Positions 3,037 to 55,971 of a stretch of DNA of 64,000 nt are shown piece after piece. The position numbers and the translations under genes were made by a program. The DNA is from a virus (lineage: Duplodnaviria > Caudoviricetes): IMG/VR virus record IMGVR_UViG_3300005077_000489, positions 64,001 to 128,000 of that record; one strand, 5' to 3'. The notes beneath the pieces were generated by a model. It had not been told where the DNA came from. It searched no databases and saw only the letters and a program-made list of their open reading frames with translations. The stretch's first letter is position 1. Each line of letters opens with the position of its first letter.

Positions 3037-3053
3037 GTTAGGAGGATTTTGTT

Positions 3054-4219: not shown

Positions 4220-4223
4220 TAAT

Positions 4224-9768: not shown

Positions 9769-10878
9769 ATGTCTATAGCCTGGTCTATAGAGGAACTACA
9801 ATCGCACATTGATGAAGTTACAACGGGCGAAAAAATTATTCCTATAGAACTGTCAGGTAGGGACACCCCTCATTATATACTAGTAAAATACCCAAATAGA
9901 AAAATTTTAAGATTATCAGAAATTGAATATGATAAGTATATATATACTGCTGCCCGGTTAGGTGTAAGAACTGAAGCAGAGATGGAAAAGCTTATTCGTG
10001 AAAAGGGTATTTGGACCGAGGATGATGATGAAATTGTTGCTGAATTAATGGAGAGACTAAATAAGTGGAAGAATAAGATAGTTAATCCGGATGTGACTGA
10101 GAATACTAAAAAGCTAGGATTGGAGTTGATCGCCAAAACAGAGGAGGATATATATCAAGCAGAAAAGAAGAAAGATGTTGCGATGCAAAATACTGCTGAA
10201 CGGCGTGCACGCTCCGCTAAATATGACTTTCTAGTTTGGGCATCTAGCTACAGACCAGAGACGGATGAAAGACTTTATGATAATTATCTAACCTACTGTG
10301 AAGAGGTAGATAGTGAATTAAGGAATAAACTTTTAGGTGAATTCATAAAATTCTATCTGGTCGGTCATACGACTGAAGAAATTCGTTATATTGCTAGAAG
10401 TAATCTTTGGAGGATACAATACGTTTCGGCACAAAAGGCTAATATGCCTTTATTCCCAAATTCAATAAGGGAGCTGACTCCGTTCCAATTGAATTTGATT
10501 TGGTGGTCATCTTATTATCAGTCTATTTATGAACTGTTGCCCGATGATCAACCTGAAGATTACATTATAGAAGATGATGAATCTCTTGATAAATATATGG
10601 AAGACTTGCATAAGGAACGGTCTAAGGACAGAGCCACAAGGCGGGCGGAAAAGAAATACGGTGCTAATACGGCGATGAAGATGCAAACAGCCTTAGTTAT
10701 GAAATCTAATCCTGATTATTGGGATTATGACTACGATGCTGCTAATCCTATTACTAAAAAAGGTCAGTCCAACATTACTTTAATGGACGACCCTAAAAAT
10801 AAGGCTCAAGCCTTTAAGAAAACAAAAGGCATACAACGTAGTCGAAAATATACCGCCCCTAAAAATGAAGACGAATAG
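9769..10878 (+). CDS. Putative second tail assembly chaperone (pre-TMP protein)
   Basis: Immediately upstream of the TMP; C-terminal WWSSYYQSIYEL.PDDQPEDYIIEDDESLDKY pattern is like pre-TMP proteins of large phages. Confidence 0.55.
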   Translation: MSIAWSIEELQSHIDEVTTGEKIIPIELSGRDTPHYILVKYPNRKILRLSEIEYDKYIYTAARLGVRTEAEMEKLIREKGIWTEDDDEIVAELMERLNKWKNKIVNPDVTENTKKLGLELIAKTEEDIYQAEKKKDVAMQNTAERRARSAKYDFLVWASSYRPETDERLYDNYLTYCEEVDSELRNKLLGEFIKFYLVGHTTEEIRYIARSNLWRIQYVSAQKANMPLFPNSIRELTPFQLNLIWWSSYYQSIYELLPDDQPEDYIIEDDESLDKYMEDLHKERSKDRATRRAEKKYGANTAMKMQTALVMKSNPDYWDYDYDAANPITKKGQSNITLMDDPKNKAQAFKKTKGIQRSRKYTAPKNEDE

Positions 10879-10902
10879 AAGAGGTTATGGAGTTCTTAGA
10901 CT

Positions 10903-13900
10903 GTGGCAGAAGAATACACCTTTAATATAAAGTTAAAAATAGATGTGGATGATTCTAAGGTATATAAACTAAAAGAATTGTCTGACAAGACTAATGATGT
11001 ACTACGTAACATAAATATGTCCCATGTGAAGGGACTTGGCTCTAGTATGTCTTTTGGGACCAGTGATAAAGACATTCAAGTTTTTAATCGTATCAAACAG
11101 GAAGTACAGAACCTAGAGGGTTATATAGATAGATTAAAGTCTGATCGAATGTTTACTCCCGCCTATATTGATGATGCCACTAAAAAGTTTTCCAAAGATT
11201 ATGATAGAAAGCAACTCAAAGAAGATTTAAAAAAAGAAATGCAGATGGAGCGGGATAGGTTATACCACTCCATTACCCATGCTACAGACAGTATGAAACG
11301 TAGTTTAGAGCAGCAGAGAAAAGAATTTATCGACTTACATAATACCTTAAAGCAAATTAAAAAACCTACCGATATATCTACATTTTCTGGTGAGCGTGTA
11401 ACTCTCAGACCAGAAAGAAGTCTGAAGGAAATGACAGCCCCTGATATTTTTACTCGTGATCTGGAATTAATGATAAATAAATTACTCTTAAAACCGAAGG
11501 CAGAATTAGGGAAAGAAATATTAAAAGTAAAAGAATACATGGATGACGTCTATTCAGAGATTAATACTGCCTTAGATAAGGTGGGTTATGAGTCACATCG
11601 TAGGGCTCAAGAAGAGGTTGGTAGGCTCCGCTTGAAAATAGAGGGACTTGCTACCGCAGGGGATATAGACCAGATAACACGTAATGTAGAATCTTCATTA
11701 AAAAGCGGGGATTTATTAAACCAAGTTAAAAAAATGCGTGAAGAGATAGTGAAAGCATCCACCGAGTTTGCTAAGGAACTGGGTGATGAGACGGATAAAA
11801 CTAGAAAGTCCTTTGCTAATTTTCAACGTAGTATTATTTTTGCCTTTAACAAACCGCAGTTCTTTGACCCCGCTGGAGAACTGTTCAGGGATGTGCAGTC
11901 ACTCAGCCAACGTAAAGGAATTGGTTCCCCTTACGGCGGTCGTTACGTTGGTGCTCCTAGGATTAAGTTTGATGAGGGCGGAATAGCCAAATATGAACTA
12001 TTTGATGTAAAGGCATTGGCAAGAGAAACTGCTAAATTAATGTCAGTAGCCGGGTTAAAGCAAGCCTTGAAGGCTGACCTAGATAGTTCCCTGCAAGATG
12101 CCTTGAACAAATATTTGGATGCTAATAAAATTTCTAAGAAAATAGAAACACTAGTTTCTTATTCTATTAAAGACCTGCAAAAGATACAACTAGATTTGCT
12201 CCGCTTTGCCGAAAAAGAAGTGGCTAGGCGAATTGGTGATGAAGAAACCAAGAGGCGTATAGAAGTATTTAATAAATATTTAGAGAGTATAACAAAACAG
12301 GCACTAGTCCTCCCTTCTATCGCTAAAAGTTCGCGTGGTGCTTCTATTATAAGAGACCCCGAACGTGGAGAATATCTGACTCTCGGTAGATATCTAGAAA
12401 CTAAACCAGGTATTAATGAATTGGATGATAGATTTATCAGACCTTTGTTAGACTATGTTAAACGTATGAATTATCGTACACAAGATATTCCGTCGCAAGT
12501 GAAAAATATTCAACGTACTGTTAAGGATTTCTGGGTAAGATCCCGCCCACAAGAAGAGCATGGTGTTGGGGTTGGTATGGAGTTAGCCGCCAGAGAAATG
12601 GTCGGTAGGATGAAGACAGCTTTTGATACGGTTGGCTCCTTCCTGGAACAGACTAGAGGACCTAAGGCTAGAAGAGCATTAACCGGAATAGATGAACTTA
12701 AGCAGCAATTCATGGTCGATTATGAGAAAGCACTGCGAGAGGCTGTGCGTGCTACTCACGAACGTGTTGCTAAAGAAGAAATAGTTACCGGGGCTAAAAG
12801 ATTACCCCCTGATTTGGAATCTCGTTTTAGGGAAGCCTTGAATTCTTTACAAGGAAAGGGTCCTAGATACCAATTATTACCAGAGCAAGTTGTTGGTTTT
12901 CTAAGGAAGGAATCTGAGAAAGTAGCACGTCAGATAGAATCTTTACCCATTGATAAATTAGAAGATGAATTAAATCGTATTGGACAGAGAGAGAAGAATG
13001 TAGTAGGTGGTACCGATTATGATGCTAGAGCATGGCAACGTGTCCTAGAGGAATTCAGTAGATACCGAAACGTAGATTTTTACAATATGTTAAATCGTGC
13101 TGCTTCTTATTCGAAAGATAGTATAAATGAATTGGAGAAGATACGTAATAGTTTATCTTCAGCCGGTCGCTTAGGAAATGAATCTTATTTTCAAGAATTA
13201 TTGCAACAACAATTTAAGAAGGTTTTTGACCCTATAAAAGAGAAGGTACCTGAAGAGCACGAAGCCATGCAGAAGCATGAGGTCTACGGTCGCCATAAGG
13301 TAATAACAATCCAGCCAAAAATACCTGGAATAGATGCCGGGCCTAGTTCCTACGGTGTTCCTGTCGATTTACAAGCTCTCAGAAGATTTATTGTTCAGAG
13401 AAATCTTGACATGGAAGAACTCTTTGAGAAGGAATATCTGAGGGGTACTGAAGCAGCCATGCGTAAATTAGGTACAACTATTGAGCGTCTTGCTACGGTT
13501 GGATTAAACGAAGCGGCAGCCGCAGGTAAACGAGATTTTGGTGATAAATTCATGGAATCTTTTTTCAGGGGTAAGAGATTACAACCTTTTGCTTCTTATG
13601 ACCCTAGGGAGACCGAGGCTTTTGGTTATTCTATAAACCCAGCTCGCCCCACCGGGGCAGCATGGGACTCCTTGGCTGGTCCAGAGTTTAATGCTATACG
13701 TTCTCGCAAAGCTCATAAATTTATCCGTAGCGGAGAGTGGGGACCGTACGGGACTGGTTTAAATGTTACTACAGTTCTTAAAGATGTTTCTGCTGGTTAT
13801 GAAGATTTATATGAGATAGGTAAAAGGTTACAGGAATTAGCTACGTTTAAATTTAAAAAACTTGTGGTTCCTAACTTGAAAGGCACAGAGGAAGAATTAA

Positions 13901-16900
13901 AAAATAGCGTTGTAAAGTATCTGCAAGAGGTTGGTCATGATATTTTTGGTGCTCCAATTAAATCTAAAGAACTAGCTGATGAAACTTATATAAAGGATAT
14001 AGTTAAGAGATGGGCACAGTCTCCTCAGGGTCCTATAGAAGAAAATATTGTTGAATTAATAAATACCTATTTGGGTCATGAAGCACGTAAGATTTCTACC
14101 GGTCAAGTTCTTAAGGGTGTAGCCTCTACAGCCTTTACTAGATTCGGTACAGAAGTAGAGGAATCGGTCAGGGAAAAAGCTAAAAAAGGATTGTATCCAA
14201 AGATAAAATTTATGGATGTGGGTGAATTATCAGATGTTCCTAAATCATTTGAAGAATTGATATCTGAGTTATTGTTGGTTCGAAAAGATTTAGACCCAGC
14301 AAAAGTTTCTAAGGCTCTAGAGATGATAAAAGGAACTCAAAATATGATTATGATGTCTTCTGACCATTTAAAACAATTAAAAATTAGTCCTATAGAATAT
14401 GGTACTGGTAGAATAATGGGGGAGGATGCTCCGAGCCTAGAGGAGCGTCGTAATTTTGTTGGTAACTTACTTGGTATAAATTTGACCTCAAAAGAAGCTC
14501 TAAGGAGTGCAGGAGATATTACTGCTCAAGTTAAAATGTTAGAGCAAGATATGGAGAGAATAAGAAGGCTATATAAAGAATCTACTGGTGGAGATTTAAA
14601 TAAAGAGGTTCCAGTAGACCTACGGATACTAGCCTCCGGGATAGGGAAGAAGTCACGTATGATCGGGGGTAACTTAGCAGAGATTATCGCAAATAATATT
14701 ATAGGAAACCTACGTTCCAGACCTTTAGAAGGTGAGACGTTAATGGAACAGATACAAAGGTCTCCCCTTGCTAAGGTTCTTGTGGAGAACACCGCCTCTG
14801 GTCGCGAAGTTATGAAATTGGCAGAACTATATAAGGGGGCTTTAGGATTACGTGGGAAGTATGGCGAAGAGTTTATATATAAACAAAATGATGCATTAGA
14901 AAAAGCGGTTGCAGGAATGATGCATGTTATGATTATGAAAGAACCTAAAGGGTGGGTACCTAAAGGTGCGGCCGAATTAGAAGCTGGTTTGTCAAAGATG
15001 ACAATAGATCCGCATGGATGGTTTGGTCTTAAGAAATTGTTTGATCCACAAGGTGCGTTGACACGTGAATTTACCATGCGGGCTTTTCCTGAAGCACGGG
15101 AAGCTGGTGCTTTCTTATCGGCATTTCGTTCATTTGCTAAATTACGTGAAGAAGAGATGACCAGAGCAGTGAAGACGGGAAAAGTTAGAATGGTCGGTGA
15201 AAAGCAATTAGTTGATGAAGACAGAGAAGATTATATTGCTCCTCTTAAAAGAAAGGCGACGGTAGCCGATCTGTCTAGAACTATTTTTGATCCATTTAAA
15301 TACGGACCTTCTATGGCTTTGGAGTTACCGGAGCCATCCGAGGATATGAAACGTTTGATAGAGGAAGAGATTAAAGAAGGAATAAAAAAAGGTATACAAG
15401 TAATGCCGGTCAAACGTTTGGTTGAAATTCCAGAGATTAGTGCACGACAGTATGTGACTTCAGAGACCGGTGAAGTATTACCCTCTACGGTATCCAGGTA
15501 TCTCTCAGAACTGGTGGATGCCACAAGAAAGTATCATATATTAGGTAGCCGAACTAATGATATAAATAAATTAGATATGCAGCGAGAGTTCGTTGGGACC
15601 GCTATTGGAGACTTCTATAATAGGATACATCCTATCAGGGACTTGAGCGTAAAACTTGATTTGCTCAGTAAACTGGAAGAGCAGGTTTTTTCCTTAGTGG
15701 GAAGTAAACCTATGCCACAGTTTTCCGGGAAATCTTCTGTCATCGCTGACGCACAGGACCCGACTAAAGTATGGTTTCCTACTATGTACAGCCGCCTCGA
15801 CGACGAAACAAAGAAATCTTTAGAAGAGGATATGCGTAAAGGTATTTCTATAAAAGATGCTTATAATAAATATTTTAAGGAGTTGGAACAATCAGTTTCT
15901 AATATAAATTTCAGGGCTCGTTTTCTTCGCGACCTTATAACGGGACCTGTAATTTATACTAAAGGAAAAGAGGATATTGGGCGTGAAGTAAAAACAGATA
16001 TATCAGAGGGTAATGATCCCCGCTATCAAAATATTAACCTAGTCCAAGATAAGATGTTATCAGATATTATCACTAACTTCAAACAGTACGAAGCTGAAAC
16101 AGATGCCTACGGGAAAACTATCGGAATAAAGTCTCGTTCTTTATTGGACTTACAGTATAATGAAATAAGACGTAATCTAAAAGAATATTATGATGAATTA
16201 TCTAATATGATATTCGGTAGAGGTATCCTGTCTGATGTAGTTTTGAAGAAGAAGATACCTGCTCTCTACCTGACAGCTCAACAACGACCTTATGACCCTA
16301 GCGAAGCAATAAAATCTGCTATAGACAAGTTAAACAAATTCAAAACAGAGGTTCCCAATGCTGAAGAATTGAAGACGGACTTAGATAAGGCTCTTCGAGA
16401 TGTAGAAACTTTCAAAGTAACAAAACCATCCCAGTGGGTCCGTCCCGGAGAAGTTCGTATAGGCGAGAGAGACCTAAAGGAATTACAAAAAGCGGGAATG
16501 GCTACTCCTGAGTTACAAAAGAGTGTGGATAGTGTTTATGCCTTGATAAATAGGCAGCCTACTACAGATGAATTTAGTTACAAGGCGATGCGGCTTACAG
16601 TGGATGATGCTCTAAAAGACCTGTCTGGAATAGCAGTAGTTCCCGGGTTACCAATAGGCGACTATCCAGTTAGTTCTAAGATGGAAGAGGCTTACAAAGC
16701 GTTAGAGGATTTACGTAGCAAAAAAGTTAAGGCTATAGAAGAAGAACTTTCTAAGTCTAAAGGTAAAATGACTTCTACTGTCACTAAGTTGCAGAGGGAT
16801 ATAGATGAGATAGACCGAGCGTCCAAGGACTTGCGGCCTATGTACCATGAAGCCTCTTTGGGTTTAGATTATGACGGAGATATGATTTCTATTCATGCTG

Positions 16901-19900
16901 CTACTGTAAAAGAAGCAAATGAGGAATTGAAGAGAATTCATGATATGCAGATGAAAGAGTATGGAACCACTAGAAGATTTTTGCATGAACAACTTAGTTA
17001 TGTTCCAGAATCAAAACGTTCTATGGGTGCCAAAGGTACTGAATTATCCGATGAAGAAATTATGGCTGTAGAAAAAATGCGAAGAAGTGCCTCTCCTACA
17101 TGGCAAGAGATGGACATTGTGAGTGACATTTCTAAGCAAGCTAAGAAGAATTTGTTAGATATCCATGCTACTACTCTTCCCGAGATAGCAGAAGATTCAT
17201 TAAAGCACTTTGTACACAAGGTTGATATGGGACAAGGTTATGAGGCTTTTAACCGTATAGGTTTCTTGTATCGTGGTGCCACGGCTAAGGATTTGGGTAT
17301 TACCCCTAAATTACATGAAACTTATAATTTATTATTAGGAGAGTTTTTGCGTGATACAATCCAAAAAGTCATAGGTGGAAAACACGGTTCGGCTGGTTCG
17401 GATATGAGTCCTATAGTGCAACAAGCTTTTTTCACTGGAAATATAGACGCGGTAGTAGATGCCCTGGACAAAGGGGATGGCGGTTGGGGAAGTTTTAAAG
17501 GTCAATCTGGTAGTAATCAACCACTATTTCAAGAGATAGAAGATAATTTAAGAGAATATCGTTTAAGATATCTGAAGCCAATGTCTAGAGATCAAGTAAA
17601 GAAGGAAGCCGAGTCCTATGGTATTTCCACATTTATGAAAGGTAGGGAACAACTAATAGAAGAGATAGTAGGTAAAACCTCTTTCAGAGCGATGTTTGAG
17701 AATGTATTTGACCAAGTAAGACGTATGGCAGTGGCTAATATAAAAGAATTATATCGTACAGGATTGGCAGGAGATTCTTCCTTATCTAAAAAGGGCTCCA
17801 TGGGCCTCGCCAAATTATTGGCTGGTACTGAGGGGTTCGAAGGAGAGACACTACAGACCTTAGGATTAAGAACTAAATTTAAATTTAATGAAGGAGACTT
17901 TGAGGCATTTGTAGACAAACAAGATGTTACTGATAAGATAATGGGAGTGTTGAAGGATAAATTAGGTAATGTCTCCAAACAGGAGATGGCTTTTCAAATA
18001 GCCGCAGCTGGAGAAGGGATTGCCAAGGTTCTACGTGGAGAACCCGGGAAACTAAAGACAGAGATAATAGAGCCAGGGTTTAGTACCGCTGGATTATATC
18101 GCGGTTTACAACCCATGTATAAACTGAAATCTTCCGGCGGGGCGGAGATGGCTGTTAGTTCTTATTCTAAACGCTCCGAAGGAGAAAATCAGTATACCCC
18201 CGGTGGTCCTGCCCTTTCTTATGCAGAAGTATTAGATTATGTATTGCGTAATAAGGCAGGAAAAAATATAGAAGTAGGTCCTTCTTTAGGTACCTTCACT
18301 AACCCGAGAGAGCAAAAAGCCTATGAATTTGTAAGTCCTGCTATTCAAGCCTACGAGGATTTTGAAAAAGCATATAATAAGATTATGTTGGTAATGGACA
18401 AGAACCTGTATGCCTTGGAGGGATTGCTCGCACAAGTACAGACTTTTGGTAAGGAAACCGCGGGTTTTAAAGGTGAATCTGCCAGAGCTGGTCGTTACGT
18501 AATGTATGATAAGGATACGCAACAAGTCTTCCTGGATTCTGCTGTAAAGTCTGCTTTTGAGGATAATAAGCGTGCTCTTTCTTTGGCTAGAAATGCTGGT
18601 GAGGCTAAAGAGGCGGAAGATAAACTTTTTGATACTGTTAGAAGAGTAAATGAATTATTAAAAAGGGGTGCAGCTTTAAAGTTTATAGATATTGATGAAA
18701 GCAGGAGAGCAGACAACCTCAGAAGTACCATAGATAAACTAGCTGACCCTTCTTCTAGATGGTCATTAAAAGTAGATAGTCTACTAGAGAGAATGGTCTA
18801 TGATAAGAAAGAATTCGGGACATTAATACGTAAGTGGTTAGCAGATGTCGGTCGGGGTGATTTATTAGATAGGAGTAATGTGGAGATAACAGCCGAGTTA
18901 AGGAAGCACAAGGGTATAAGGAAGGAAGCTCTAGAAGAAGCAGCATCTTATATAATTTCTGGTAAGGGTAATATAGCAATTGGTTTGAGACCCTTGATTA
19001 GAGATGCACGTTCCGTGGATATAAAGGAAGAGATATCCAAGGGTCTTATAGGGAAGATAAGATCGGAGGACTTCTCAAAATCTTTCTCACCCTTATTTAT
19101 GGAAAGTTGGAAAGAAGCTGTCATGCGTAATGCACAAACATTAAGTGCTTCGGACTGGAGAAGTATTTATAAGGCTCATCCAGTGTTACGAGATATGCAG
19201 GCTCCTGGTACTTCGTCATATGAAGACGTTATTAAACAGTTACGTTCCGAGGGTATTTATGGTGGTAGTCGTGGGGTCACCCATTTTATAAATAATATAT
19301 TGAAAGAAAGACAAGGACAAATTTTAGAGCACCTTGGCGTGGAGAAACCTGAAGATTGGGAAACCCTTAGACTAAGCCAAGTGGAAAATAAAATGAAATC
19401 CGGTATATTAGAGGCGGCGGAATCTACAAGGTGGCCATTCAGACCCCGTGCCGGTGGAGGGGTATATTTAGAGGATATATTGGACAAACCGGTTCACAAA
19501 GTTAGAGAAGATGTGGAAAACATATTTGATAGTGCTTTTGACCTATCCCCGGAAGACTGGAAACAAATATTTAACTTTGATGAAAAGGCACAAAAAATAG
19601 CGATGAATGCTGAAGAGCCCCTGAAGGCTTTATATGAAGCCGGTATGTACGGTGAAAATCGTGGATACACAAGATACATTAATATGATATTTAAGAAACG
19701 TATGGAGCATATTCTAAATGAATTAGGGCAGGAAGCCCCTGATTTCTATACCATGCGTTTCCAAAAATCTAAACAAGAGTTTCTTAGTTCTCTCGAAGAA
19801 GCAGCATTGGATAATTTATTAAAAGGAACTCCGTCAACCGGAGGACCTTTTGGTGGTAAGCGGTTTACTCCCGGAGAGGCTTTTGGGGAGCGGGCACCAG

Positions 19901-22900
19901 AGAACATAAGGAGAGCATCTAGAGGTTTCGTTCCTGCTGATTACCCTCATATTAAACCTATTTATGATTTTCCTAAATTCTTAGATACAGAATCTTCGGT
20001 ACAATACAAAAGTCATGGTGACCAAGTAAAAATGAGTGCTGTACCTCTAAGGTGGGGTAATATAGAAATAGGTTATGGTACTAAAAACAAACCATTAGAT
20101 CCAGCTACAGCTAATGCTAGATATAGGCCTTTTATAGAAGCTACCCAGGACCTAGTCCCAGTAATGAAAGATTGGGTAAAAGAGAACAAGCATCGCATAG
20201 ATTTATATGGTGAGTTTGGCGGGTTAAAAGATAAATTAGTATGGTTTGATGCTAAGGTAGCAAACAAAACTTTGAGTCCTGATGATTTTAAAAAGTTAGC
20301 TGAAGAGTTAAATCTGAAAACTACTGAAGAATTATATAGAGGACCAGTAACGAAAGAGATAGTTGACAAAGTATATCGTCAAGTCACTCCCTTCAGAAAA
20401 TTAGAAGAAGGCGTTGTGGCTAAAGGATTGGAGATTGATGAAAGAACAGGCTTCCCTAGAATGGCTAAGTTTAAGACTAAGCCTTATCTAGTGGGGGAAG
20501 AGACGCGTTATCCTTGGCAAGACTGGGGTAGTGCAGAAAGGAAAATAGAGGAGAGGCATAAGAAACTTATGGAGAGAGCATTTTCTCCATTTGATAACAT
20601 TGAAGAAGGGATAGAACAGGACCCTACAAGATCTTTTACACCCACGGAAGCCCAGCGTAGAGAAGGCTTATATCCAGAAAATTGGCCGGTTGTAGAAACT
20701 ACCAAAAAACGTGTTGAAGAGTATCTTAAAGGTTTAGATGATAAATTTTATCAGTCTGCCGAGAGAGCGAAAGAATTTCCTAAAGGTACTAAGTTCTTAG
20801 TACAAGCCCCGGGTGTAGAGCCCATTCCTTCCTATGCTAAGGATGCTGTGGTTATTTCTAAAGAAGAATTAAGGAAAACCATCTTTGGTAAAGGGATGCC
20901 AGACTTACCTTATGACCCTGTTCTTGTATTAAATTCTAGAAGACAGGTTCCTAGGTACCCTGAAGCAATTCCTATTTCTAAGGAACGCGGTTTTATGTTT
21001 CCTGGCGAGGCTAAAGAGGGTGATGTAGGTAGGTTTGTCATACACCAGCATGATGCCTTAAGGGCGGGTCCCCACCATGACATGCGTATTGAGTTAGGTG
21101 GTCAATTACAGTCTTGGGCAGTTCCAGAATTTATTCCGGAAAAGATGGGTGAACGTAGGTTAGCCATAGGTCCTACGGCACACCATGCCATTGACTACTA
21201 TCAGAAGGGAGATTACGATATTCCCAAAGGTTTTTATGGTGCCGGTCATATGTCAACATTTGATACGGGTAAAGCTACTGTAGAAAGTGTAAAAGAAGGT
21301 TATGTTACTGTACGATTAGAGGGAGTAAAAGGACTAGCTGATGGTACTTATTCTATCATAAAATATGAACCTAAAGGAGAAGATACAAGAAAAGGACAGT
21401 GGTTAGTGTCTAAGGTTAGACCATTGTCAGAAAGAGACCCAGAAAGAGCAAAGAAATTATACGGTTTTAGTCCATCCATAGAGTTAGATGACGAATTGGG
21501 GGCAGGAGAGGGTAGGTATGGACAGGGTAATATAAGGTTATTTACCCCTGGTAATAGAGCAGAGATGCGGGCTTTTATGAATGTATTACAACATGAAAAA
21601 GGACACGCAGCAATAGATTTTGCAGCACCTAATATTGCTAGGGATATAATGGCTGGAAAACAATTTCCTGGTGTTGATACCAAGAAACTGCAAAGTTATT
21701 ATATGCAGAAGTATGGGGACCGCGGAGATGATGAGGAGGCAGCAGCGAATGCATTAGAAGAGGCTATTGCAGGCGGGCTACGTACAGACGAAGACCAAGA
21801 AATATTAGACGAAATTAGCAAACTGCAAGATGTCATAGGTGAAAAAGCCGGAATGGCATTTGCAGGTACATCACCACAGAACGAACTTTCCTATATTAGA
21901 AAACTATTCTCACCAGTACAACAACCGTACACAGTTTATACAGATGCAGGCTCTAGAGGTAACCCCGGTCCTGGGGGTGCTGGTGCCGTAGTATTTGACC
22001 CACAAGGTAAGAAGGTTTCAGAACTTAGTAGATACTTAGGAGAAACCACAAGTATGGCTGCAGAATATCAAGGGCTTATTATGGGATTAGAAGAAGCCCT
22101 TAAACATTCTGCCAAAAACATTCAACTTAAGTCTGATTCACAAGTAATGGTGGGGCAGATGAGAGAGGAGTTTAGAGTTAAGAATGAACAAATAAAAGAA
22201 TTAAAAAGACAAGCAGACTTACTTAAAGCACAATTCGAAGGTTTTAATATAGACTATATTCCCAGAGAACAAAATAAATTAGCAGATAAATTGGCTAACA
22301 GGGCTATGGACTCATATCTTAAGTCATATTCGCCTGCCGAAGATGACGTAGACCGTTTTGGTAGTCCTATTATTTATGATTATAATAAATTGACAAGTAG
22401 CCCTAATTGGCTTCCCCGCGGTATGACTGCTAAGGCTGTTTCCGCTGCTGTAAATGGACAATTTATAGGTGCGGCATCTTATTCAACTGCCTCTCCTGAA
22501 TACACAGGGTTTGGGGAATTATCTATAAAACCGGAATATAGGCGTAGTAGTAGAGTTGCTGGTAATTTGATGGAGAAGGTAATAATAGATTTAATCAATA
22601 GTGGTAACTTCAAACATACACGTCCTCTCACCCCAGTCGCTGATACTCCAGAAGCCATCTCTTTTTGGGAGAGTATAATAAAAAGAACACAGAAGCCTTC
22701 AAGAAATATAAAAGAGGCATTCTTAGCAAATAATGTGACTCCTGATGATCTTTCCATGGTTGCTGGTAGATTACAGGCTGAAATAGACATAACCAAGGCA
22801 TCTAAGTTTACTGATGTAATAAAGAGGATCATTGAAGAACCTCATAATTTAGGGGAAGAACTTTCTAAACTGACAGAGACTAATCAAGCAAAAGTAATTA

Positions 22901-25900
22901 GAGCTACCCAGGCAGTGTTGGCTAAAACAAATGATGCCTCTTATCCAAAGATAGGTATTAAACCTACTGCTTTTTCTGAGGGATTGGATTTTAAGTCTAA
23001 ACTCCGCTCTGAAATAACATCATTATATAATTACGGTAAAGAAGGTGCCAAACTATTTTTTGGGTCTTCTGGTTCTGGTTCTTCCATAACTGAATTTACA
23101 AAGAATATAGCAAGGGGTATATGGGATGACCTAGGTAGATTGGGAAAATTCTCATTAGGTACAATGCGCGGTTTGAGGGCGTATGCACCTGTAGAAGATT
23201 TAGTTCGTAGTGGTGAGATAAAGATTGATGACACCCCATTTAGAGCCCGGGGGCTAACGTCCGAGAGAGTCAGAAACTATTTAGGTAGAGGATATGCTGT
23301 TGGTATGGGTGGGGGCGGTAATATATATATGCCTCCTGATATTATACAATCATATCAGAATGCCACTGGCGGACTTAAACAACAGTATGGTCAATCTATA
23401 ATGAAAACTTATTTTCATGAAAAAAGGCATCTTGATATCGATGCTGCTCCAGAGAAAATAAAGGAAAAGTGGAGACAACTTGCATCTGACAAGAATACTG
23501 ATATAGGTAAATTAGTTAGTAGCTTTATAAATGAGGCTATGCTTAGCACTTCCAGGGACGTATATAAGAAACAATTTGAGGATGCTCAAAAGAAATATGG
23601 AGAAAATATAGGTTCCGATTTCTTAAATTCTTTTGCTGCTAGGTGGGAAGCCTTACAAGAGATAATTGCTGGTCATCCGGAGATGCGTTCTGCTAGTAGT
23701 AATCAACAGTTAGTACAAAAAATTCGCAGTGATTTCTATGGAGATGTAAATAAGCCTATACCTGGATTTGGTCCCAGTGCTAGTGCCTTTTCTCCTAATT
23801 TAACAGATTATAAAAATTTCAAGAACATTAAAAAGGGCTACGAAGAAGAGTCGGATACTGGACTATTACATAAGAAAAAGGTAGCTTTAAAATTTGGGAT
23901 TCCGCCATTAAAAGGTCTGTTGGGAGAAGATATCGATATTTCGGAATCTCTACAATATTTAATGCATCCGGCTATGAGGGAAAGAAGACTTATGGGACTC
24001 CCCCAAAGAATGATAGATTCAAGAAATCCTTACTTAGCTGGGATGTTACGTAAAGGTTTTGGTGCTGGTGCTGGCTTATCCCTAGAAGGAGAACTAGGAG
24101 TAGGTCCTTACAAAGTAGAATTAGGTGGTGTAGGCTTTGGCAGATATGGTAAGAAAGATGAGGAATTTTTTGCTGATAAACCCAGTGAGATAATAGGACT
24201 TTCTAGTTTGGAACCCGTCAAACGTCCAATTGATTACGTGGGTTTGAGCCCCGGTGCCGAACACGGTTTGTTGGCCGCCCTTAGGGCAAATACTAACGCT
24301 CTACTACGTTCATCTTTTATTACGAAGGATATGCCCGTTGGGTTACTTCCTACTATTATGCAGGACATAACTAAAGCGTACAGGGTTCCTGCTACTGATG
24401 AGACCCTAGGCAGTGCTTTTAGAAAATTTTTTGGCGGCACTTACGACCTTGCAAAGGGTACTATGAAAGGTGCTATAGGTCTTCCTTATACATTAATAAA
24501 ATCTCCTTTGGATATATTTAAATCCGGTAAGGATACAGATTCCAGGTTTTGGACTGGTGTTGGTCAACAATTCAATGGTATTTCTGCGGGATTATCAGAA
24601 CTTTCTACATACAAGAGTGGTGCTTTCTTGGATACAGATTTAAAAAGTGCCTATTCAACCAAATCAAAATCTATTTATGATATAAAGAATATTGTAGATA
24701 TGGAGTACGATAAATTAGTAAGAAAGTTAGAATTTGGTTTGGCAGTGATGGAACCCGCAGATTTAAAGCGTAATATATCTGATGTATTTACGGCTTATTC
24801 GGACACGATGGATAATATGTTTAAAAACCCGTCTAAAGCCTTAGCCGAGGAGGCTGCTAAACAAAAAGCAATACTGGAATCAGTATTGGGAAACCAATGG
24901 GAGACTCCCCCAGCGACACAGCGATTAATACGTGGTGGTGCAACGCTGGGTCATGGGGTGTCTTCTATTTATAATCGATTACTGAAAACTTTGGAAGAAA
25001 TAGGTTATGCTACGGGTGGTGTCGGAAAGGGAGTAGGCTATTTAGCAACACACCCTAAAGACATATTACCCGGAATTATGTCTTCTATCCGAGGACTATT
25101 ACCAGGGAAGGATATTACTGGTGTCGGGTTGTTGGGTGAAACTTCCAGACAATTAGAGCAAATCTATGGTACCGGGATGTTAAGAACTTCTGATGTAGTA
25201 AAGTTAGCCGGGTACGGTGTATCACCAGAACAAAAAGTTGGGGGGTTACTCTCGCGTGCTTCAAAATATCAACCTGTGACAGCCGCGGACCGTGCTATGA
25301 GAGAAGTTCTTGGTCTCAGGGAAACCGGTGCAATTGTGGGAGATATCACTAATACAAAAGGAATCTTGGGTGCTCTAGGGCATGTTGTGGTCAAACCCAT
25401 ATCTGCTATTGGTGAAACTATGACAGATATGGGTAAGGCGTTTGGTTCCTTTAATTTAGTAGAGATGGTAAAAGCTCCTCTAATCGGTCTCTTAAAGCTA
25501 GCCCCAGTGATCGGTCATACCGTTGCGGGTGTTCAAGAATTTAGGGAAGAAGTAGAGAAGGGTGCTTCCCCTTACACATCATTTGTTAGCGAAGTCGGAG
25601 AACAAATCATAGAGGGAATTACTATTGCATTAGGTGCCGCCGCAGGTACTAGAGTTGGTCGTCCTGCAGCCGCCGGGTTAGCTAGTATAGGTGGTAGGGG
25701 TCCTATGGCAGCCGCTAAATATTTACCAATTGCCACTGGTATAATAGGTAGTATTCTAGGAGGAATTGGTGGTGGTAGAATAGGGGAGTCTTTTGAAAAA
25801 GGTATGTTCTCTATGGTGGGACAGACCTCTCCTAAGTCTGTAGCACGTTCTATTTGGGAGCAAGAACGTGATAAGCGATCTCTAGAGGAAGAGGGTCTAG

Positions 25901-28900
25901 ATAAAATACTACCGGATTACCTGGATGAATCCAAAAAAGAAGAATTAGCCAATATGCAAAAATGGTTGGTCCGTGGTGGCGTAGTTGGCGGACTATATGG
26001 TGGTATGAAGGTTCCTCTTCAAGGTGGAACACTTTCACGTTTAGTCTCTATGGTCGCGGGTCCTACTCTAGGTTATCTCGGTGCCAAAAAATTAGGAGAT
26101 GTCACGATGGGTCGTGCTTCAGAGAAGGCTAGAGAAGACTATATGGAAAAGACTCTTGGATTTCGATCTTTTTCTCCATTATCTTCACAAGAGAAATGGG
26201 ATATTCCTAGGGAAATACGCGGGGTTACGTCTGAGAAACTCAAAGGAAAAACCTTAGATGAAATAATTTCTACTTTCAAAGAGTTACAATCTGAAACGTT
26301 TAGTGGTAGCAACTTAGATAAGCAGAAACTGTTGACATCACAGAAGGCTGTTACCCAGTTTATGTCCGAGATCTATCTTAGCAGAATTGAAGAGTTGAGA
26401 GATCAACTGAATGTCGCTGCTAAAAGTGGTAATCAGAATTTAATGGCAAAACTCCGAGCAGAGATTGATAGGTATATAGTTTTTTATATAGGGAATGTAC
26501 TCAAGTCTTCTACTGGTGCACACGCAGCCGCCGATGCTTTTAGGGTGCGGTCTATCGGTGGTTTTGTAGGTTCAGAGGACTATGAAGCACGTTCTACAGG
26601 TCGTCCCCAATCTTTCGATGAGGTTATAAGTCTCGATAAATTCTTGGAGAGGGGTCTTAGCGGTGTATCTAGGAAGGCTGTAAATCTATTAAGGAATTTA
26701 TCTGATACGGGTGCTTCTCCAAGGTCTATATATCAAGAAATAATGCCAGGAATTCTGAAGTCTTCTACGAATATCCCAAGAGACGTTACGGCTGTGCATA
26801 CATATTTGAAATCTGTAGTTCATGAACTAGGACAAACCCCAGATGTTAATATAGACCAGTACCGTTATTGGAAGTCATTGGAAGAATATTTCCGGGCCAC
26901 CGCAAAGCAATACAGAGGAAGTAGTCGGTTCGACTTTGGAGATCTACGTTCTGCTGCTCCGATAACACCAGTTGGTTTACGACCGGAGGACCAGGAGACC
27001 TTTAATGCAAAAACTGTAGATTACTATAAAAAAATGTTGCAGGCCAACCCAATGTTTAAGGAGGGTGCTACTGTACCACTAGAACTTAAAGTTACGGATG
27101 AGGCTGGTAATGCTTTAAAAAATATAAGAGTTGACTTAACAAAAACAAAACACGCGGCGGACGGCGTTTCCATGTCCATAACAGATATGAATAAAGTTAT
27201 GGCACAGAAAAACACTCTGTTTGGTGCAGTAGAACTAACTTCTAGATTTATTTTGGCGGGAGCAACTGTGGGTGGGTTAGTTAATGAACTAAGGACTATG
27301 GCTTCCACTATTGCTCAAGTAGAGTCTGGTATGATGGAACTAAGAAAGGTTATGGAACCCTCTATAACCAACTTTGACGAGATACGTAACTCTGCTCTTA
27401 ATATGGCTAAAGAAATGGGTGTTGGTATTAATGATGTCATACAATCTATGGTAGTTTTCGGGCAACAGGGTGATACACAAGCACAAGTAATAGAGAAAGC
27501 GAGAACATCTGTTATGGCTGCCGCTATAACTGATATGAAAGCTGCAGAAGTCACTGAATATCTTACATCTGCGGTAAAGCAATATGGAGAAGAGATAAAG
27601 GAAACACAACGTTTTCTGGATTCTTGGATAAAGGTTGACGTACAGCATGCCATAACGGCTACTGAATTATCCAAAGCAATGCTGCGTGTTGGTTCCGCTG
27701 CTAAAGAAGCTGGAGTCGGTTTCCATGAATTAAATGGTATTGTGACTGGTATTGGCTCTGTTACTAGACAAACCGGTAGAGAAGTTGGTACTGCTCTACG
27801 TTTTATTTTTAGGAATCTCCAAACTACTCAAGTTAAAAACTATTTGCGTAATATACTAAATATTGATACGTTGTTACCGAGCGGTTCTATAAAACCGGCT
27901 ATGAAGATATTTGATGAATTACAGGCAAAATGGCAGAATTTCTCTGATGCTCAAAGGATGCATGTTGCACAATTGGTTTCCGGTGCTAGACATTATAATG
28001 CTTTTCTAGCAATGATGAATAACTACTCAGAAGTATTAACTGCTACACAAGATTCTATACACTCTGAAGGTTATGCTCAAGCTCGTTTGAATATGCAAAT
28101 GGATACGCTAACTAAGAAACTAGCACAAGTCAGAGCGGCTTCAGAAAGATTATATGTTGACTTTGGTAAACTAGCCCTGGGTCCAATGAAACTCGTAGCG
28201 GATGCCACAACTTCTATGATTACTGCTTTTACTCTAATCCCTGATACTGTAAAACAAGCTATATTAGCATTAGGTACTTTTGCCGCTTTTTCCGGTAAAA
28301 TAGAAAGTGTTATTTCCGGTTTGCAAAATTTTGGGGTGGCTAGCGGTATGTCAGATACCTTTTCTAATTTTATGTCTTTTGCTACCTCCCCAATTTCTTC
28401 AGTAATGAAAGCGTTCTCTTCTGTTCAGGGGGTCTCTGGGTTATCAGAGGTAACAACTACATTAGGAAAGATGGCATTCATTGGTATCTCTGCTGGTAGA
28501 TCTTTTAATAGTTTGTTCAGCAGTATAGGCAAAGGCGCAGGAATTGCCCTTGGTTCTGTGTCACTACTCGCTGCTGCAGTTGGAGCTCTGAGTGATTCAC
28601 ACACAGGAATGTTTAAATTGGCTGGTGCTTTCGGGCTTATAGGAGCTTCTGCTCTTATTAGCAGCGGTATTATAGGGTCCCTAAGCGGCTCCACTACAGG
28701 TTTTATTGGTTCCTTAGCACCTCTGGCTGTAATTGCTACTGTTATCTATAAAAACTGGGATAAGTTATCAGACGTTTTTGGCGGAGTAGGAAATAGTATA
28801 GAACGTTTACAGAAACAGACTGAAGGTATAGGGAGTATCACTAGCAAGCGTTTAGAAATTAGTGAAATAACTACAATATTTGGTAAGGCGAACTTATTAG

Positions 28901-31900
28901 GGAGAGGTCTCAGGGAAGCCAGAGTATCATTATCATCTTCCCAAGGCTTAGCAGAGGAACGCGACAGAGTCTTAGGAAGTATGGGCGAAGAGAGTTCTTA
29001 TAAGTCTTTAGTGTCCAGACAGATAGAATTCAATGATTTACAGAGCAAGGCTCTTAATAAAAGTATAGAATTATTACCCCAATTAGCCGATGGTTATGAT
29101 GCCTTTGGTAATGCCATAATGAATACAAATATAAATGCCAGAATCCTCCTGGAGACTATGGATGACCAATTGCGTGTAGCACAAGACATGGAAAAAGTTG
29201 ACTTAGCTAAGTTAATGACAGAAAAATTATTTCCTGTCGATTCGGTAGGGAAAACAATAAGAGATAGTTTACGTTCTATTTTGAGTATAATTCCTAGTGC
29301 GGGAGAACAATGGGCGGAAGCATTATTCCCTTCCTCTGCCTTTGAGAAACAGCAGCGTTTACTAACAAAGATGGGTGGGCAGAGAGAAATGGCTTCTCTA
29401 TATGGTAATATACCGATGCCACCCTTTATGTCTAATTCTCTAAAACAAATGCATCGGGAATTAACAAAAGTAAATTCCGAATTAGATGTGGAACTTAAGA
29501 AAATAGGAGATAGATTACTTTCCGTAAGCAGGGAGACTTCCCCCAAACAATTCCTAGATATGTTGGCACAACCGGAGTTCGATAAATATTTAGAAGTGTC
29601 TGGTGGTAGAAATATGCATATTCAAAGGCAATTAGCTGATGAATTCTTTGGTGGAAATGTAGGAGAATTGCAACGTGCATTACTACCTACTACCAGTGAG
29701 CCAAGAGCACTATGGAGACGCCGCGAGTTTGGTATCACTGGTGGCGGTATAGCGGATGCTTTGGGATTACCTAGTTCTTATAGAGTTAAATCTCCAGTAA
29801 GAGACCCGTTTGGTAGTGCTTACAGGGAGCTATCCAGTCCTACAAGATATATGTTAGAACAGTTCAATCCACAAATAGTTTCTATTGGTCAGTGGTTAAA
29901 TGATGGATATAATGCTTTAGGGCAAACTGTTACGGAGTCTTTTATAGGGGCACTAAAAACAGCCTTCAAAGCCCTTGATGTTACTGAACGAATCTCTAGA
30001 GAAGTCGGGGTAACATTATCAATGATAGGAGAACAAGGTGGATTACGACAAACATTTGTTTTGATTGGTAAAGATATTCAAGCGATAGCACTTACTATAA
30101 AAGAGTCCTTTCTCAGAAGTATTGATGATTTGGGGGCAATGGTTTCTCGCGGTGCCAGAGCAATAGCAGGGGACGAAATAGCTAATGCATTTAATAAGTG
30201 GGTAGAAGAAGCAACCAAGAATACAAAAATTGCCATAGACTCATGGATAATATGGTCTAAATCTGCAGGACAAGCAATACAACGCTCTTCTTTTGGGAGA
30301 GAATATAGTAATATCACCGCAGGTGGTAATCTGGGAGACATATATTCCAGGGCTAGTACTAAGGGTATGTTGGGAGATGTATATGCTGGTTTTGGAAATG
30401 TACGAACTGCTATTAGTGACCAGTGGTGGACCGGGAAAACATTTCCTATACAGGGTTATAGACCACCAGAATATAATTGGTGGCGTAGTGGGTATGAAAG
30501 GCGTATAGGTATAAATAAACCTGAACAAGTTTTTAGTGTAGATGTAGCATCTCTATTTACCAAGGGTTTAGGTTCTGACTTCTTGTCTACTATTCTTACC
30601 TCAATAAGCCCGTCACTTAATTTGCTTATTCGATCTAGGTATCAAGCAACTCCGCAAGAAACATATGCTAGGGAGCAAGCGGAGATGGCACGCGGAGAAG
30701 CACCGGGTTACTACACTCCTCCTAGAGAGATGTACCTTAGAAGAGACTTGAATGCTCTTGGAGTAACCGCTGTCTTAGATGAAATAAGTGTTGCATTAAC
30801 ATCCTTCTCTACTATGTGGAGAGACTACGGCGATATAATGCGGCAAGAGTACGGTTTTATACCTGAAGGACTAAAGACATTAAAGAATATGTGGCTACTT
30901 GGTGTCAAAGAGACTGGTTATAGTGCATATGAGACAACTACACAAGAGGTTCTTCCTAATATGATGAAGATATATCCTCCACTTCATCTTACATATAATT
31001 TGATGAAGCCAATGAAAGAATTCGTAGAGTATTTGACCTTTATTCCTGCAGCTATAAAAACTGTGGCTGGTGAAGTAGTAAAAGCTGGTGGAGTATATAT
31101 GCAGGGTAGAAAAGAAGTCGGAATAGAACTAGAACCAATATTTTCTATCTTAGAGAAATATCTTGGAGGAGTTGCTGCCCCCGCTGGGTTCCTCTCTGTA
31201 GACATAATGCGACTCTTGTCCAGGATATTTGTTGATTATCCGAAGGATGAGATTACTAAAAGAATAGTGGAGAAGGAAATTGCACCAGGGGAATTTGGAC
31301 CTAGGAAATCTTTCGGTCAGCTAAGTTTCAGAGAATTATTTACATATTTAGTTACAGGAGTTCGACCCTCTGCTCCTGGTACTGTTCCTACTGTAGTAAC
31401 TCCTGGTGTACGTGCTCCTACACCTGCCGAAAGGGCGGAAGAGACGGCAAGGAGACAAGCAATAACAGATGAGAATTGGAGAAGGCGAAGAGACCGCGGT
31501 GAAAGAATAGTTGACGATTGGATGGAAAGTTGGAGAAATGCTACTGTGAGTACCAGTAGGGCACTTGCTTCTTGGTCTGATATAGTTATGGCTTTCTCCA
31601 ATGATGTAGGAATTTCTATAAAAGATGTGTCTGGTATGGCGAGAGAATACATATCGCAAGTTCAGGGTAATCAAACTAAATATACCAAACAAGTACGTTC
31701 TTTTGTAGAGCAAGCATATGACAATTTATTGAATACTTCTATTAAAGCATATCAGAACGTACAAACGGCACCTATTAGAGAAATGTATGATAAAATAGTA
31801 GGACAAATTTCTGACAGGATTTCTACCGCTACAGAAGGTATAGACACTACTGCTCTGAGAGAGGGTATAAGTAAGTATATGAATAAGGCGGTAGAAGGGG

Positions 31901-34900
31901 GTAGAACGGGTACCACGGAGCTCTCCAAAATATTACAAGAACAGGGTATAGATGTTTCTAAGTTATCTGCTGATAGATTACAACCTATAGTTGATCTTAT
32001 TGATAAATACAGATCCGATGTAGAAACCGCTGTCTCTCGTGGTCGGGGCTTTGGTAGCAGAACAGCAGCGGAGACCTACGCGAGAGTTTCTGGTATAGAT
32101 ATTTCTTCATTAGATAAGAAGGCTAGGCAAGGTGTTACGCAGGGTATAACTGCTGTTGAAGATTTATTCACTAATATAAAACAAGAGTCTACAATCCTTG
32201 CAGAGTCTACTGGTAGAACACTTTATGAAGCTAGAGATGAGATATCCAAAAAAATTACAGAGACTATAAATAATTTTGATATAACCAAAGCCTTGGATGA
32301 TAAGACCTTGGCAGAAATGTCAAATGACTTAAGAGATAGACTTAAATCTTTAATACCAAAAGACTCTGAGAATGCTGCAAAACTAGAAGAGAATATTAAT
32401 AGTTTAGTTTCTAAGTTCACAAGTTACTTCCAAAAATTCCAACGACCCATATTAGAGATTTCTAAAGATATTCCTACTGATAAACTTAAGAAGAGTATCG
32501 TTGACCTATATGGAGCTATTGCCGGAAAAATAAATAGTCCAGCCATCAATGAACAAATTGAACTGGCTAAGCAAGTGTTTGAAAAGAATATGGGTCATTT
32601 AAGAGGAAAATTAGGAGAAGTTAAGTTTGCTGAATACCGGGATAAGTTTGCAGAAATGATGGTTACACGATATCAAATGTGGTCCGAGAGTATCAGAACT
32701 AAAATGGATGCATATATGAATTCGGCAAAAGACATGTTTACCAACATAGATGCTGCTTTGGGGGACACGTTTGGTAGGTCTTGGGATTATGTAAAAGGGA
32801 TAAATATCGGACCAAAATTGCAGGCTGTATTAACTGGCTTAGTAGGTAGTGCTGCGGAATTATTTGAAGGTGCACAATCTAGTTTTGCACTACCTCTTAG
32901 AGAAATAGAAAAACGGGTAAAACAATTAGACTGGAAGAGTACCTCGGATGTTATGCACGATGTTTGGTTTACACTACAAAAATCTTTAGTGTGGCTGCGT
33001 TCCGAAGCAGAAAGATATTCAGGAGAGGCTGAAAACTATAACAAAAAAGAACAGCAAGATCAGTTAAAACTAAGATTAAAACAGAGGGCAGCTTGGGAAC
33101 AAACATTAGCATTCCAGGGATTATCGAGAGAAGAGATACAAGGACCACCCGGTACAATAGCATTAAAACGACCAGAATCTTTACTAGCCGCTCCAAGTTT
33201 TGAAAGAGAAGGCATGTACAATATGGCTACAAAATATGGTCCCCTAGGGAGTTATGCCGACATCATTCAATCTTATAATGACATAGCTCGGGGTGCCTTA
33301 GCAGAAGGAAAGCCCTTTGGTACTAATTTGGGAACTGTCGTCCTAAGACCTGGATATGCACAACAGATGGGTATAGTTGGTGGCGGTACTAAATTAGGTG
33401 GAGTGGAGGTAGGACCTAAACTTCCTGTTACTTTAGGATACACTGCTGAAACAGGTGTTACCCCTATGGTTACTACACAACCTTTAGGTGGTATAGGTGG
33501 TCGTATTACACCACTGACTGAGTTACCAGAAGGTTCTATACAACTTGCTATGGGTGGCACCAGAATGATTAATTTTCGAGATACTTACGAAAAAGCAATC
33601 AGGTCTATAGCATACGGGGCTGGTATGAATGTATCTACCTACGCTGCACAAGAGAAGTTGAAGTTAGGTGCAGATTTTGAATGGGAAGTAAGGGGCTACG
33701 ATAAAGCTGTTAATTCTATGTGGAATATCTCCACTGCTCTGTTTAATATGAATAAGCAAATGGAAGAATTCAGAAAACAGGCTACTTCTGCTGGTGCTCA
33801 GACAGAGAGTGCTATGCAAAAGATAGAGGACATGAAACTAGACCAAAGGATGTTAGGTGCATTAATTAGACTAAAGGAAATGTTGGAAGAGTTCAATAAT
33901 GCCAAAGAAAAAATGACCTTTGATTTCGGTCTTGGAGAAGTAGAAGAAAACATCCGTGTGTTACAGAGGTCCCGTAGAGTAGGACTAGAAGGTATGGTAG
34001 GGTTGCCCACTAAAATGCCTACGGAATTAAGGTCTTGGTCTCAGTTGAAACCAGAGGAGCGAGCGGCTGTAGTCAGTCCGCAGTATGCCGCTTCTACACG
34101 CCGCTTAGCCGAAGCAGAGAGAAGACAAGGACTAGGTGAGAGGACGGAATTGCTCGCGGCTAAAGCAGATTATAGGGCTCGTGCATATGTGGATGAACTT
34201 AAGAAGCAGGTCAACTTAGAAAGAGAACTTGGTCCGGAAGCCTATCAAGCTTTATCAAGAGATATACTAACAGCAGATAATGAGACAGCCAGAAATACGT
34301 CGGTTAGTATAGGGCTACAAAAAGGTATGGTATCTGCACTAATCGGTATCAAAGACGCTATCACGGCAAACTTCTCCACAATGAAAGTAGAGGAAGTCTA
34401 TAAGGAAGCCATAAATTATAAGAAAACAGCGGAACAATTGGAACAGCAAGCATTAGCAATGGGTGTTCCCGAGAACTTGTCTCCGGAGATGCAAGAAAAA
34501 CAAAGGGGCTTAAATGAAAGAGCCCGCGTCTATAGGACTTTGTTTGAGGAAGGCAAAATAGAAATTTATGAGAGAACTAGAAGACCGGAAAAATCCCTTA
34601 TTACTCCTGAGTCCTTTCATAGGGTTGTATTAGGATTTCTGGCTAGTACAAAAGAGCAAGAAAGGACTATTAGGGCTAGCCTTAATGTTGGTAATAATAG
34701 AGCCGAGCAGGCACTATTTGATATTGCTACCAGACTACCACGTGAACGACGAAATGCATTCCTACAAAACAGGTATATAACAAAGAACATAGAGGCTGCT
34801 GGCAGCAATTATGTAGGTGTAGATTTTGCAGCGAATGTAGCCAAACGTCTTAAGAAATTTGATGACGAATGGTCTGAATTACAAGCCAGAAAGAAAGAGG

Positions 34901-55957: not shown

Positions 55958-55971
55958 AAAGGAAATTTATT

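Follow-up and report, generated by a model that had tools for sequence, protein, structure and literature searches.

Cleavage of the phage tape-measure protein has been shown for T5 and lambda only, and has been mapped in T5 alone (PMC12617516, PMC10038345). In T5, pb2 is cut after R1127, which separates the ruler part from the peptidase domain and yields pb2* and pb2C (Linares et al. 2023, PMC10038345). In lambda, gpH is converted into gpH* and gpHC after tail assembly (PMC12617516), at a site that, unlike that of T5 pb2, is unmapped. Zincin-mediated self-processing into units has been proposed for the polyvalent proteins of phages and conjugative elements (Iyer, Burroughs, Anand, de Souza and Aravind 2017, PMC5512222), and modular tape-measure-related effectors are known from contractile injection systems (PMC13277306). 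Polyvalent proteins, enzyme-bearing tape measures and tape-measure cleavage are thus already known, but a recurrent junction motif is described in none of these papers. Such a motif is reported here from a giant open reading frame (ORF) in a 64,000-nucleotide stretch of viral DNA (Duplodnaviria, Caudoviricetes; positions 64,001 to 128,000 of IMG/VR record IMGVR_UViG_3300005077_000489), hereafter the window, which derives from a 211-kb IMG/VR phage contig. The ORF (window positions 10903..51753, + strand) runs uninterrupted for 13,616 amino acids (aa), and its product is referred to as W; residue numbers are those of W, nucleotide positions are those of the window, and all features of W given below lie on the + strand.

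W comprises an N-terminal part, an enzyme-cargo part (aa ~2400-5500) and a tape-measure part. The last of these opens with a PhageMin_Tail domain (aa 5502-5690, 27406..27972; Pfam PF10145, E 3.5e-24), which scores 86.2 bits against a curated cut-off of 33.2, and 97.9 bits (E 7e-29) in a genome search. The cargo part is that of a multi-enzyme polypeptide, with RNA_ligase (aa 3033-3176), LigD_N (aa 3381-3485) and RNase_H/RVT_3 (aa 3675-3801; RVT_3 1e-23, RNase_H 7e-12) found together by Pfam in the one ORF. The giant ORF is best explained as a tape-measure polyprotein, in which aa ~2400-5100 form a rack of independently folding, exchangeable enzyme modules; the rack would hold an RNA ligase, a LigD-type 3'-phosphoesterase (PE), a first HExxH module, RNase H, a variable cassette, a second HExxH module, and others. 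A short aromatic-small-Pro motif forms a fence around these swappable modules, and its best-supported and most likely function, which we rate at about an even chance, is that of an endoproteolytic maturation signal. The features that mark W out are its size (13.6 thousand aa), the aromatic-small-Pro fence, and the match of this fence to the T5 cut.

In the initial annotation of the window, ten tetrapeptides were taken as instances of a recurrent F/Y-S-P motif. All ten are present where they had been placed, in the frame of the single 13,616-aa ORF, and nine are true instances; AFSE (22969, aa 4023) was rejected; it lies inside a cassette without homologue in the relatives. Six further sites were found in W: FTP at aa 84, YTP at aa 2431, FVP at aa 3009, FTP at aa 3547, YAP at aa 4094 and FGP at aa 4289. 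FSP occurs exactly six times in aa 2727-5092, an interval whose boundaries came from the first and last motif of that annotation, against 0.33 expected, in agreement with the count and the rough estimate made there; it is the top-ranked tripeptide of the interval (Poisson p 1.4e-6), and in the shuffle test that had been proposed none of 3000 shuffles reaches six. Over the whole ORF, FSP occurs seven times against 1.24 expected and is the 8th most enriched tripeptide, which is not significant by itself after 8000 tests, so that the signal is one of location, concentrated in the cargo part. Because of the origin of the interval boundaries, the ORF was re-partitioned by domain content into an N-terminal part (aa 1-2400), the cargo up to PhageMin_Tail (aa 2400-5500) and the remainder (aa 5500 to the end). 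With this partition, [FY][ST]P is observed 11 times against 1.33 expected in the cargo part (p 1.7e-7), once against 0.68 in aa 1-2400, and five times against 2.4 in the tape-measure part. The other proteins of the phage (146 ORFs, 51,388 aa) are enriched neither in the strict motif (35 versus 29.9 expected) nor in the extended motif described below (3 versus 2.5). The earlier remark that the Ser codons vary is borne out, and the Thr, Phe and Pro codons vary likewise; since codons vary at every motif position, the signal lies in the peptide and not in the DNA, and a DNA-level signal at the motifs was rejected.

Four family members, 35-65% diverged, were found: a homologous 14,711-aa ORF in a 545-kb viral contig (G001/L002, hereafter G001), a homologous ORF of at least 6,386 aa in a metagenome contig (L007), a homologous protein of 6,667 aa (P0001), and a 24-kb frameshifted contig (L008; ENA ERZ25039603 contig_78987), which is also the source of the fragments P0002, P0003, P0017 and P0152. 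The phages collection, searched with tblastn, and viral_contigs together yielded just one real relative. RNase H proteins dominated the output of an exhaustive search of representatives, from which about seven family fragments were useful. The homologue of the giant ORF in L008 appears as seven overlapping gene calls, with frame breaks falling inside domains; the breaks are most likely assembly errors, through which the protein databases hold the L008 protein as fragments. Reading the separate L008 gene calls as natural splits at the fences was rejected, as they are frameshift artefacts that break inside domains. Enrichment of the motif in the cargo part is found in each relative (G001, 13 versus 1.55 expected; L007, 7 versus 1.26; L008, 11 versus 1.8; P0001, 6 versus 1.8).

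The motif class is retained between W and G001 at 10 of 11 cargo motifs, compared with 10 of 45 control tripeptides drawn from similarly built classes (Fisher p 4.6e-5) and one of six motifs outside the cargo. It persists at sites whose 30 flanking residues share no more than 20-47% identity, with F/Y and S/T swaps included, and these comparisons indicate that the motif core is under purifying selection. Across the members, the invariant elements are an aromatic residue and a Pro two positions on; the middle residue shows a strong preference for S/T in W and G001, and is also A, V, G or E at the same sites elsewhere.

Two AlphaFold models, covering aa 3190-3830 (model 1; mean predicted local distance difference test, pLDDT, 78.7) and aa 4087-4300 (model 2; pLDDT 85, predicted template modelling score, pTM, 0.81), place the motifs relative to the folds. 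In model 1, the PE, first HExxH and RNase H modules are well folded, with low-confidence segments in between, and in both models the motifs sit at transitions between order and disorder, bearing out the earlier idea of a protein-level signal at module borders. Along the chain, the series begins in the N-terminal part with aa 84 (RM-FTP, 11152..11160), where R-x-F-small-P is present in four of five homologues within divergent flanks, followed by aa 2431 (YTP-GG, 18193..18201), found as YTP or FTP in five of five homologues with conserved flanks as well, and aa 2728 (KS-FSP, 19084..19092), which is FSP in W, G001 and P0012, and FSL in L007, P0001 and P0017. The RNA ligase module (aa 3009-3226, 19927..20580) is preceded by a doublet of FTP at aa 2988 and FVP at aa 3009 around a 21-aa spacer (19864..19935); every homologue has a counterpart of both motifs, F[TG]P for the first and F[VST]P for the second. 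It is followed by a second doublet, FSP at aa 3227 and FTP at aa 3245 (20581..20643), whose 15-aa spacer is acidic and whose members (model residues 38-40 and 56-58) bracket a disordered segment (model residues 36-58); in the homologues, this doublet reads FSP, YSP or FAP, then FTP, FSP or YSP, at 37-47% flank identity.

The LigD-type PE module (aa 3245-3521, 20635..21465) has a high-pLDDT fold and ends at a third doublet, FSP at aa 3522 and FTP at aa 3547 (21466..21549), which has a 22-aa spacer and likewise brackets a disordered segment (motifs at model residues 333-335 and 358-360, disorder at 334-360). Site 3522 is FSP in W, G001, L007 and P0002, YVP in P0004, FVP in P0005, and has no counterpart in P0001. 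HExxH module 1 (aa 3547-3668, 21541..21906) contains HEKGH at aa 3564, with HE.GH invariant in four homologues, and is separated from the RNase H module (aa 3669-3808, 21907..22326; pLDDT 95-98) by aa 3669 (KL-FSP, 21907..21915), which comes after the last helix of module 1 (model residues 469-480) and before the first RNase H strand (model residue 487); this site is YSP in G001, and is missing from L007 and P0001. Directly after the last RNase H helix (model residues 603-619) follows aa 3809 (KS-YSP, 22327..22335), which is YAP in G001, FTP in P0001 and FVP in L008. The first ordered residues of model 2 are those of aa 4094 (RA-YAP, 23182..23190; FAP in G001, NAP in L007), at the start of HExxH module 2 (aa 4094-4288, 23182..23766; HEKRH at aa 4172). 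The ordered part of this model runs from YAP4094 to aa 4288, just before the pair FGP at aa 4289 and FSP at aa 4296 (23767..23796), and the region of the latter reads FSP, YSP, FEP or FAP over four homologues at 20% flank identity. The last cargo site is aa 5090 (RS-FSP, 26170..26178), where every homologue has one to three [FY]-small-P motifs in a divergent context. The segment between these two sites (aa 4296-5090) gives a weak tRNA_NucTransf2 match (E 0.014). Deep in the tape-measure part, KA-YSP-A at aa 10213 (41539-41547) corresponds to FSP in G001 despite 37% flank identity, and may be an additional processing site.

The motifs also coincide with the places where homology between the relatives stops and restarts. 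BLAST blocks between W and P0001 cover aa 3009-3224, 3247-3521 and 3534-3812, with unrelated P0001 material in between, and the ligase block in P0001 begins exactly at FVP (aa 3009), after unrelated sequence. The long homology blocks with G001, L007 and P0001 stop at W3811-3815, and homology restarts at W4087-4095 (with G001, at 3811 and 4087; with L007, at 3815 and 4092). Of 24 ends of homology blocks, eight are no more than 3 aa away from a strict motif, where 0.9 would be expected, although the 24 ends are not independent and represent about 12 distinct junctions, six of which are at a motif. The variable cassette slot between YSP3809 and YAP4094 (aa 3812-4086, 22336..23160) differs among the relatives in length and content: it measures 275 aa in W, a non-homologous 435 aa in G001, and ~7-58 aa in P0001, L007 and L008. 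The slot matches no Pfam family, and the earlier label 'GNAT' for it is without Pfam support. Other rearrangements are seen at the same kind of border. P0001 carries an extra cassette (aa 3060-3880) with a PolyA_pol/CCA-type nucleotidyltransferase (E 4e-25) before the ligase module; L008 has an insert of ~230 aa flanked by two copies of the junction element before the ligase; and L007 (aa ~3238), compared with L008 (piece 10001-11284, aa 78-99), is missing the exact 19-residue stretch between the motifs of the doublet that corresponds to aa 3227 and 3245, an in-frame deletion from motif to motif. The alternative offered earlier, a standard linker for domain accretion, thus gains support from the coincidence of motifs with homology-block ends and with the variable slot.

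When 84 instances from W and its homologues are pooled, an extended signature appears on both sides of the core, with K/R at -2 (32 versus 11.2 expected), S/A/G at -1 (51 versus 21.7), A/G/S at +3 (44 versus 21.7) and D/E at +4 (30 versus 10.5), counted from the aromatic residue; the pooled instances share ancestry, which inflates the p-values, and the same data served both to define the extended pattern and to test it; both points count against the processing reading. In W, K/R is present at -2 in 12 of 16 sites. To judge from these alignments, the consensus is roughly [KR]-[SAG]-[FY]-[S/T/A/V/G]-P-[AGS]-[DE], and two copies often stand on either side of an acidic, dispensable spacer 15-22 residues long. 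In picornavirus 3C and potyvirus NIa polyproteins, short conserved sites in variable linkers also flank each mature product; these proteins differ from W in belonging to eukaryotic RNA viruses with dedicated, proven proteases, and share no homology with it.

The nearest precedent is the T5 cut itself. The T5 genome record reads GNAN-S-F-V-P-R|A-E-G-G around the cut, so that pb2 is cleaved one residue after S-F-V-P, and pb2 (1,219 aa) contains just two [FY]-small-P motifs. Among T5-like tape measures, the element F-x-P-R-A persists at identities as low as 35% (as FTP in Vibrio phage Cilsick, and FIP in My1 and VAC51), and of those compared, two distant Vibrio phages alone have lost it. Both the T5 site and those of W lie in a linker before an enzyme domain, and S-F-V-P fits [SAG]-[FY]-small-P. 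The differences are that T5 has a single site, compared with 12-15 in W that fence many modules, and that the T5 cut has been demonstrated, whereas the sites of W are known from sequence. The polyvalent proteins resemble W in another respect: a single injected chain combines many unrelated enzyme domains, among which HExxH modules are scattered, and LPD23/LPD1 domains are the atlas clusters closest to the HExxH modules of W. The polyvalent proteins differ in that PMC5512222 names no processing motif and uses the term 'tape measure' 0 times, whereas the carrier in W is a tape measure with a junction consensus.

The reading of the fence as a processing signal rests on its accessible position at fold edges, the two-sided residue signature, the doublets around dispensable spacers, the possession by each cassette of its own fences, and the mapped T5 precedent. 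Used ~12-15 times, the fence would allow the train to be divided into its single enzymes, while the tail is being assembled or once the protein has been ejected; the candidate proteases are the two embedded HExxH modules, a phage caspase-like C14 protease and a host enzyme. A bolder form of this proposal, which we regard as possible though on balance doubtful, is that tape-measure cargo trains share a fence code, aromatic-small-Pro, which can be used again and again and is read by one protease, possibly the activity that cuts T5 pb2.

Several observations weigh against proteolytic processing at the fences. The match to T5 spans S-F-x-P only: the R↓A-x-G-G half of the T5 site is missing in W, except for YTPGG at aa 2431, and none of the W sites has Arg after the Pro, with A/G/S at +3 and D/E at +4 instead. 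Lambda gpH, which is also cleaved, has zero [FYW]-small-P and carries FATGG/YATGG motifs; a universal tape-measure motif was rejected on the absence of [FYW]-small-P from gpH. The catalyst of tape-measure cleavage is unknown for both T5 and lambda (PMC12617516). Junctions lacking the motif, which according to the initial annotation would tell against a processing code, do exist: P0001 has no motif behind its PE module, and sites 3547 and 3669 are missing from both L007 and P0001. They are confined to some junctions of the more distant relatives, and the motif is otherwise largely kept despite divergence of the flanks, so that the code is for the most part not refuted on this count. Pfam at E<=1 returned no meaningful match for either HExxH module, for the 'GNAT' cassette or for three further modules; a profile search of the PDB gave an unrelated protein (E 0.96); Foldseek against PDB and AFDB returned no match at E<=0.001; and VIA-align reached a best Z of 3.9, with the whole-domain fold matches being gluzincins at Z<=3.7, below any safe threshold. 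In addition, [FY]-[ST]-P-x-[DE] looks like a generic helix-start signal, and the cutting and the cutter are both inferred.

The resemblance to a helix start leads to the view, which we consider unlikely, that the motif is a structural boundary element that is never cut. Its Pro would end or begin helices and its aromatic side chain would pack against the neighbouring module, so that adjacent domains fold insulated from one another and the enzymes work while tethered. A helix capping box with Pro at N1 would have S/T at +1, P at +2 and D/E at +4, as the fence prefers; the motif follows a terminal helix at four modelled sites and precedes a helix at three, small residues freely replace S/T, and the junctions without a motif also suit a structural role. 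This account must, however, have one motif serve as helix stop and helix start alike, and in the comparison with helix N-capping, the four modelled sites that follow a helix precede disorder or a strand, and A/V/G replace S/T. K/R at -2 and S/A/G at -1 fall outside the capping rules, insulation needs no doublets around a dispensable spacer, and the same motif adjoins the T5 cut. The very helical tape-measure part (8,100 aa), with its thousands of helix ends, is moreover not enriched (5 versus 2.4).

The fence might instead be the place where a non-protease partner docks or modifies the chain, such as a tail assembly chaperone, the lumen of the tail tube, a host factor or a proline-directed kinase. 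In favour of this, the fence is a conserved short linear motif in accessible linkers, and W and G001 strongly prefer Ser/Thr at the middle position. We judge this improbable, given that A, V, G and E occupy the middle position in homologues, that the only kinase-like gene nearby encodes a histidine kinase, that no partner has been identified, and that the motif marks cassette borders and is not spread along the chain; a phosphorylation sequon in particular was set aside as unlikely on the first two of these grounds. Still less credible, to the point of having very little chance of being correct, is a purely historical recurrence, in which junction segments were copied with their cassettes during domain accretion and have little present function. 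The duplicated junction around the inserted cassette of L008, and the existence of longer shared junction elements, e.g. GGP[FW]GG..F[TG]P.EAFGE, speak for copying of this kind; against it, the core of 3-7 residues alone is kept while the rest of the linkers has diverged, and the class-conserving F/Y and S/T swaps, together with 10/11 versus 10/45, show ongoing selection. Copied linkers passed on by descent account for some of the recurrence, yet they do not explain why the core has been selectively retained.

Under the processing reading, the enzyme responsible could be encoded within W, elsewhere in the phage, or by the host. The initial annotation had proposed embedded zincins, and the HExxH modules are indeed conserved in all relatives; their assignment as zincins is less secure, with no Pfam match and fold similarities of Z<=3.7 to anthrax lethal factor, neprilysin, PepO and ERAP1. 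In the model of module 2, a small sheet (strands 20-22, 49-51 and 54-57) is followed by HEKRH within a long helix (71-95), and a conserved EE/QE-x-x-AG helix downstream of HExxH has a putative ligand role only. The language-model neighbours of the HExxH modules are the LPD23/LPD1 and peptidase clusters, at scores suited to a lead (module 1 at most 0.90). Complex prediction of module 2 with a junction peptide (aa 3216-3256) gave a score of 0.02, which is no evidence either way. A caspase-like Peptidase_C14 protein of 296 aa, a possible candidate for the processing protease, is encoded outside the window in both complete genomes of these related huge phages (G000:C1:17190-17993, - strand, E 1e-21; G001:C1:389520-390335, + strand, E 3e-32). 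Caspase-like C14 enzymes often cut after K/R, the residues found at -2 in 12 of the 16 W sites. A host enzyme is also possible as the cutter. The prohead protease, which had been named as another candidate, is unlikely, because phage tails are built apart from the heads and enrichment in the motif is seen in none of the other virion proteins; the phage genome was searched for Peptidase_S78 and HK97-type Phage_capsid and neither was found, and the prohead protease itself was not identified.

The 12-15 conserved and structurally well-placed sites, which share the core of the T5 site in five diverged relatives, turn a single mapped bond into a testable consensus. They show how a huge phage may deliver an enzyme set (ligase, phosphoesterase, RNase H, nucleotidyltransferase) as one exchangeable, motif-punctuated chain, and if the fences are cut, they would offer ready-made insertion points at which proteins could be loaded into phage tails. 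Should the fence code hold, any enzyme cassette placed between two fences would be released automatically in the host, huge phages could freely swap the anti-defence and nucleic-acid-repair enzymes that they inject, and a first consensus for tape-measure processing would be provided by the five relatives, each with its 12-15 sites.

Neither Pfam nor PHROG assigns a tail function to the ORFs that neighbour the giant ORF. A 953-aa ORF (175-3036, + strand) that lies upstream of the tail genes encodes a hybrid sensor histidine kinase with receiver, two PAS, GAF, HisKA and HATPase_c domains. A 318-aa ORF (55951-56907, + strand) located downstream of the giant gene matches LAGLIDADG_3 (E 3e-7), suggesting a possible homing endonuclease among the tail genes.

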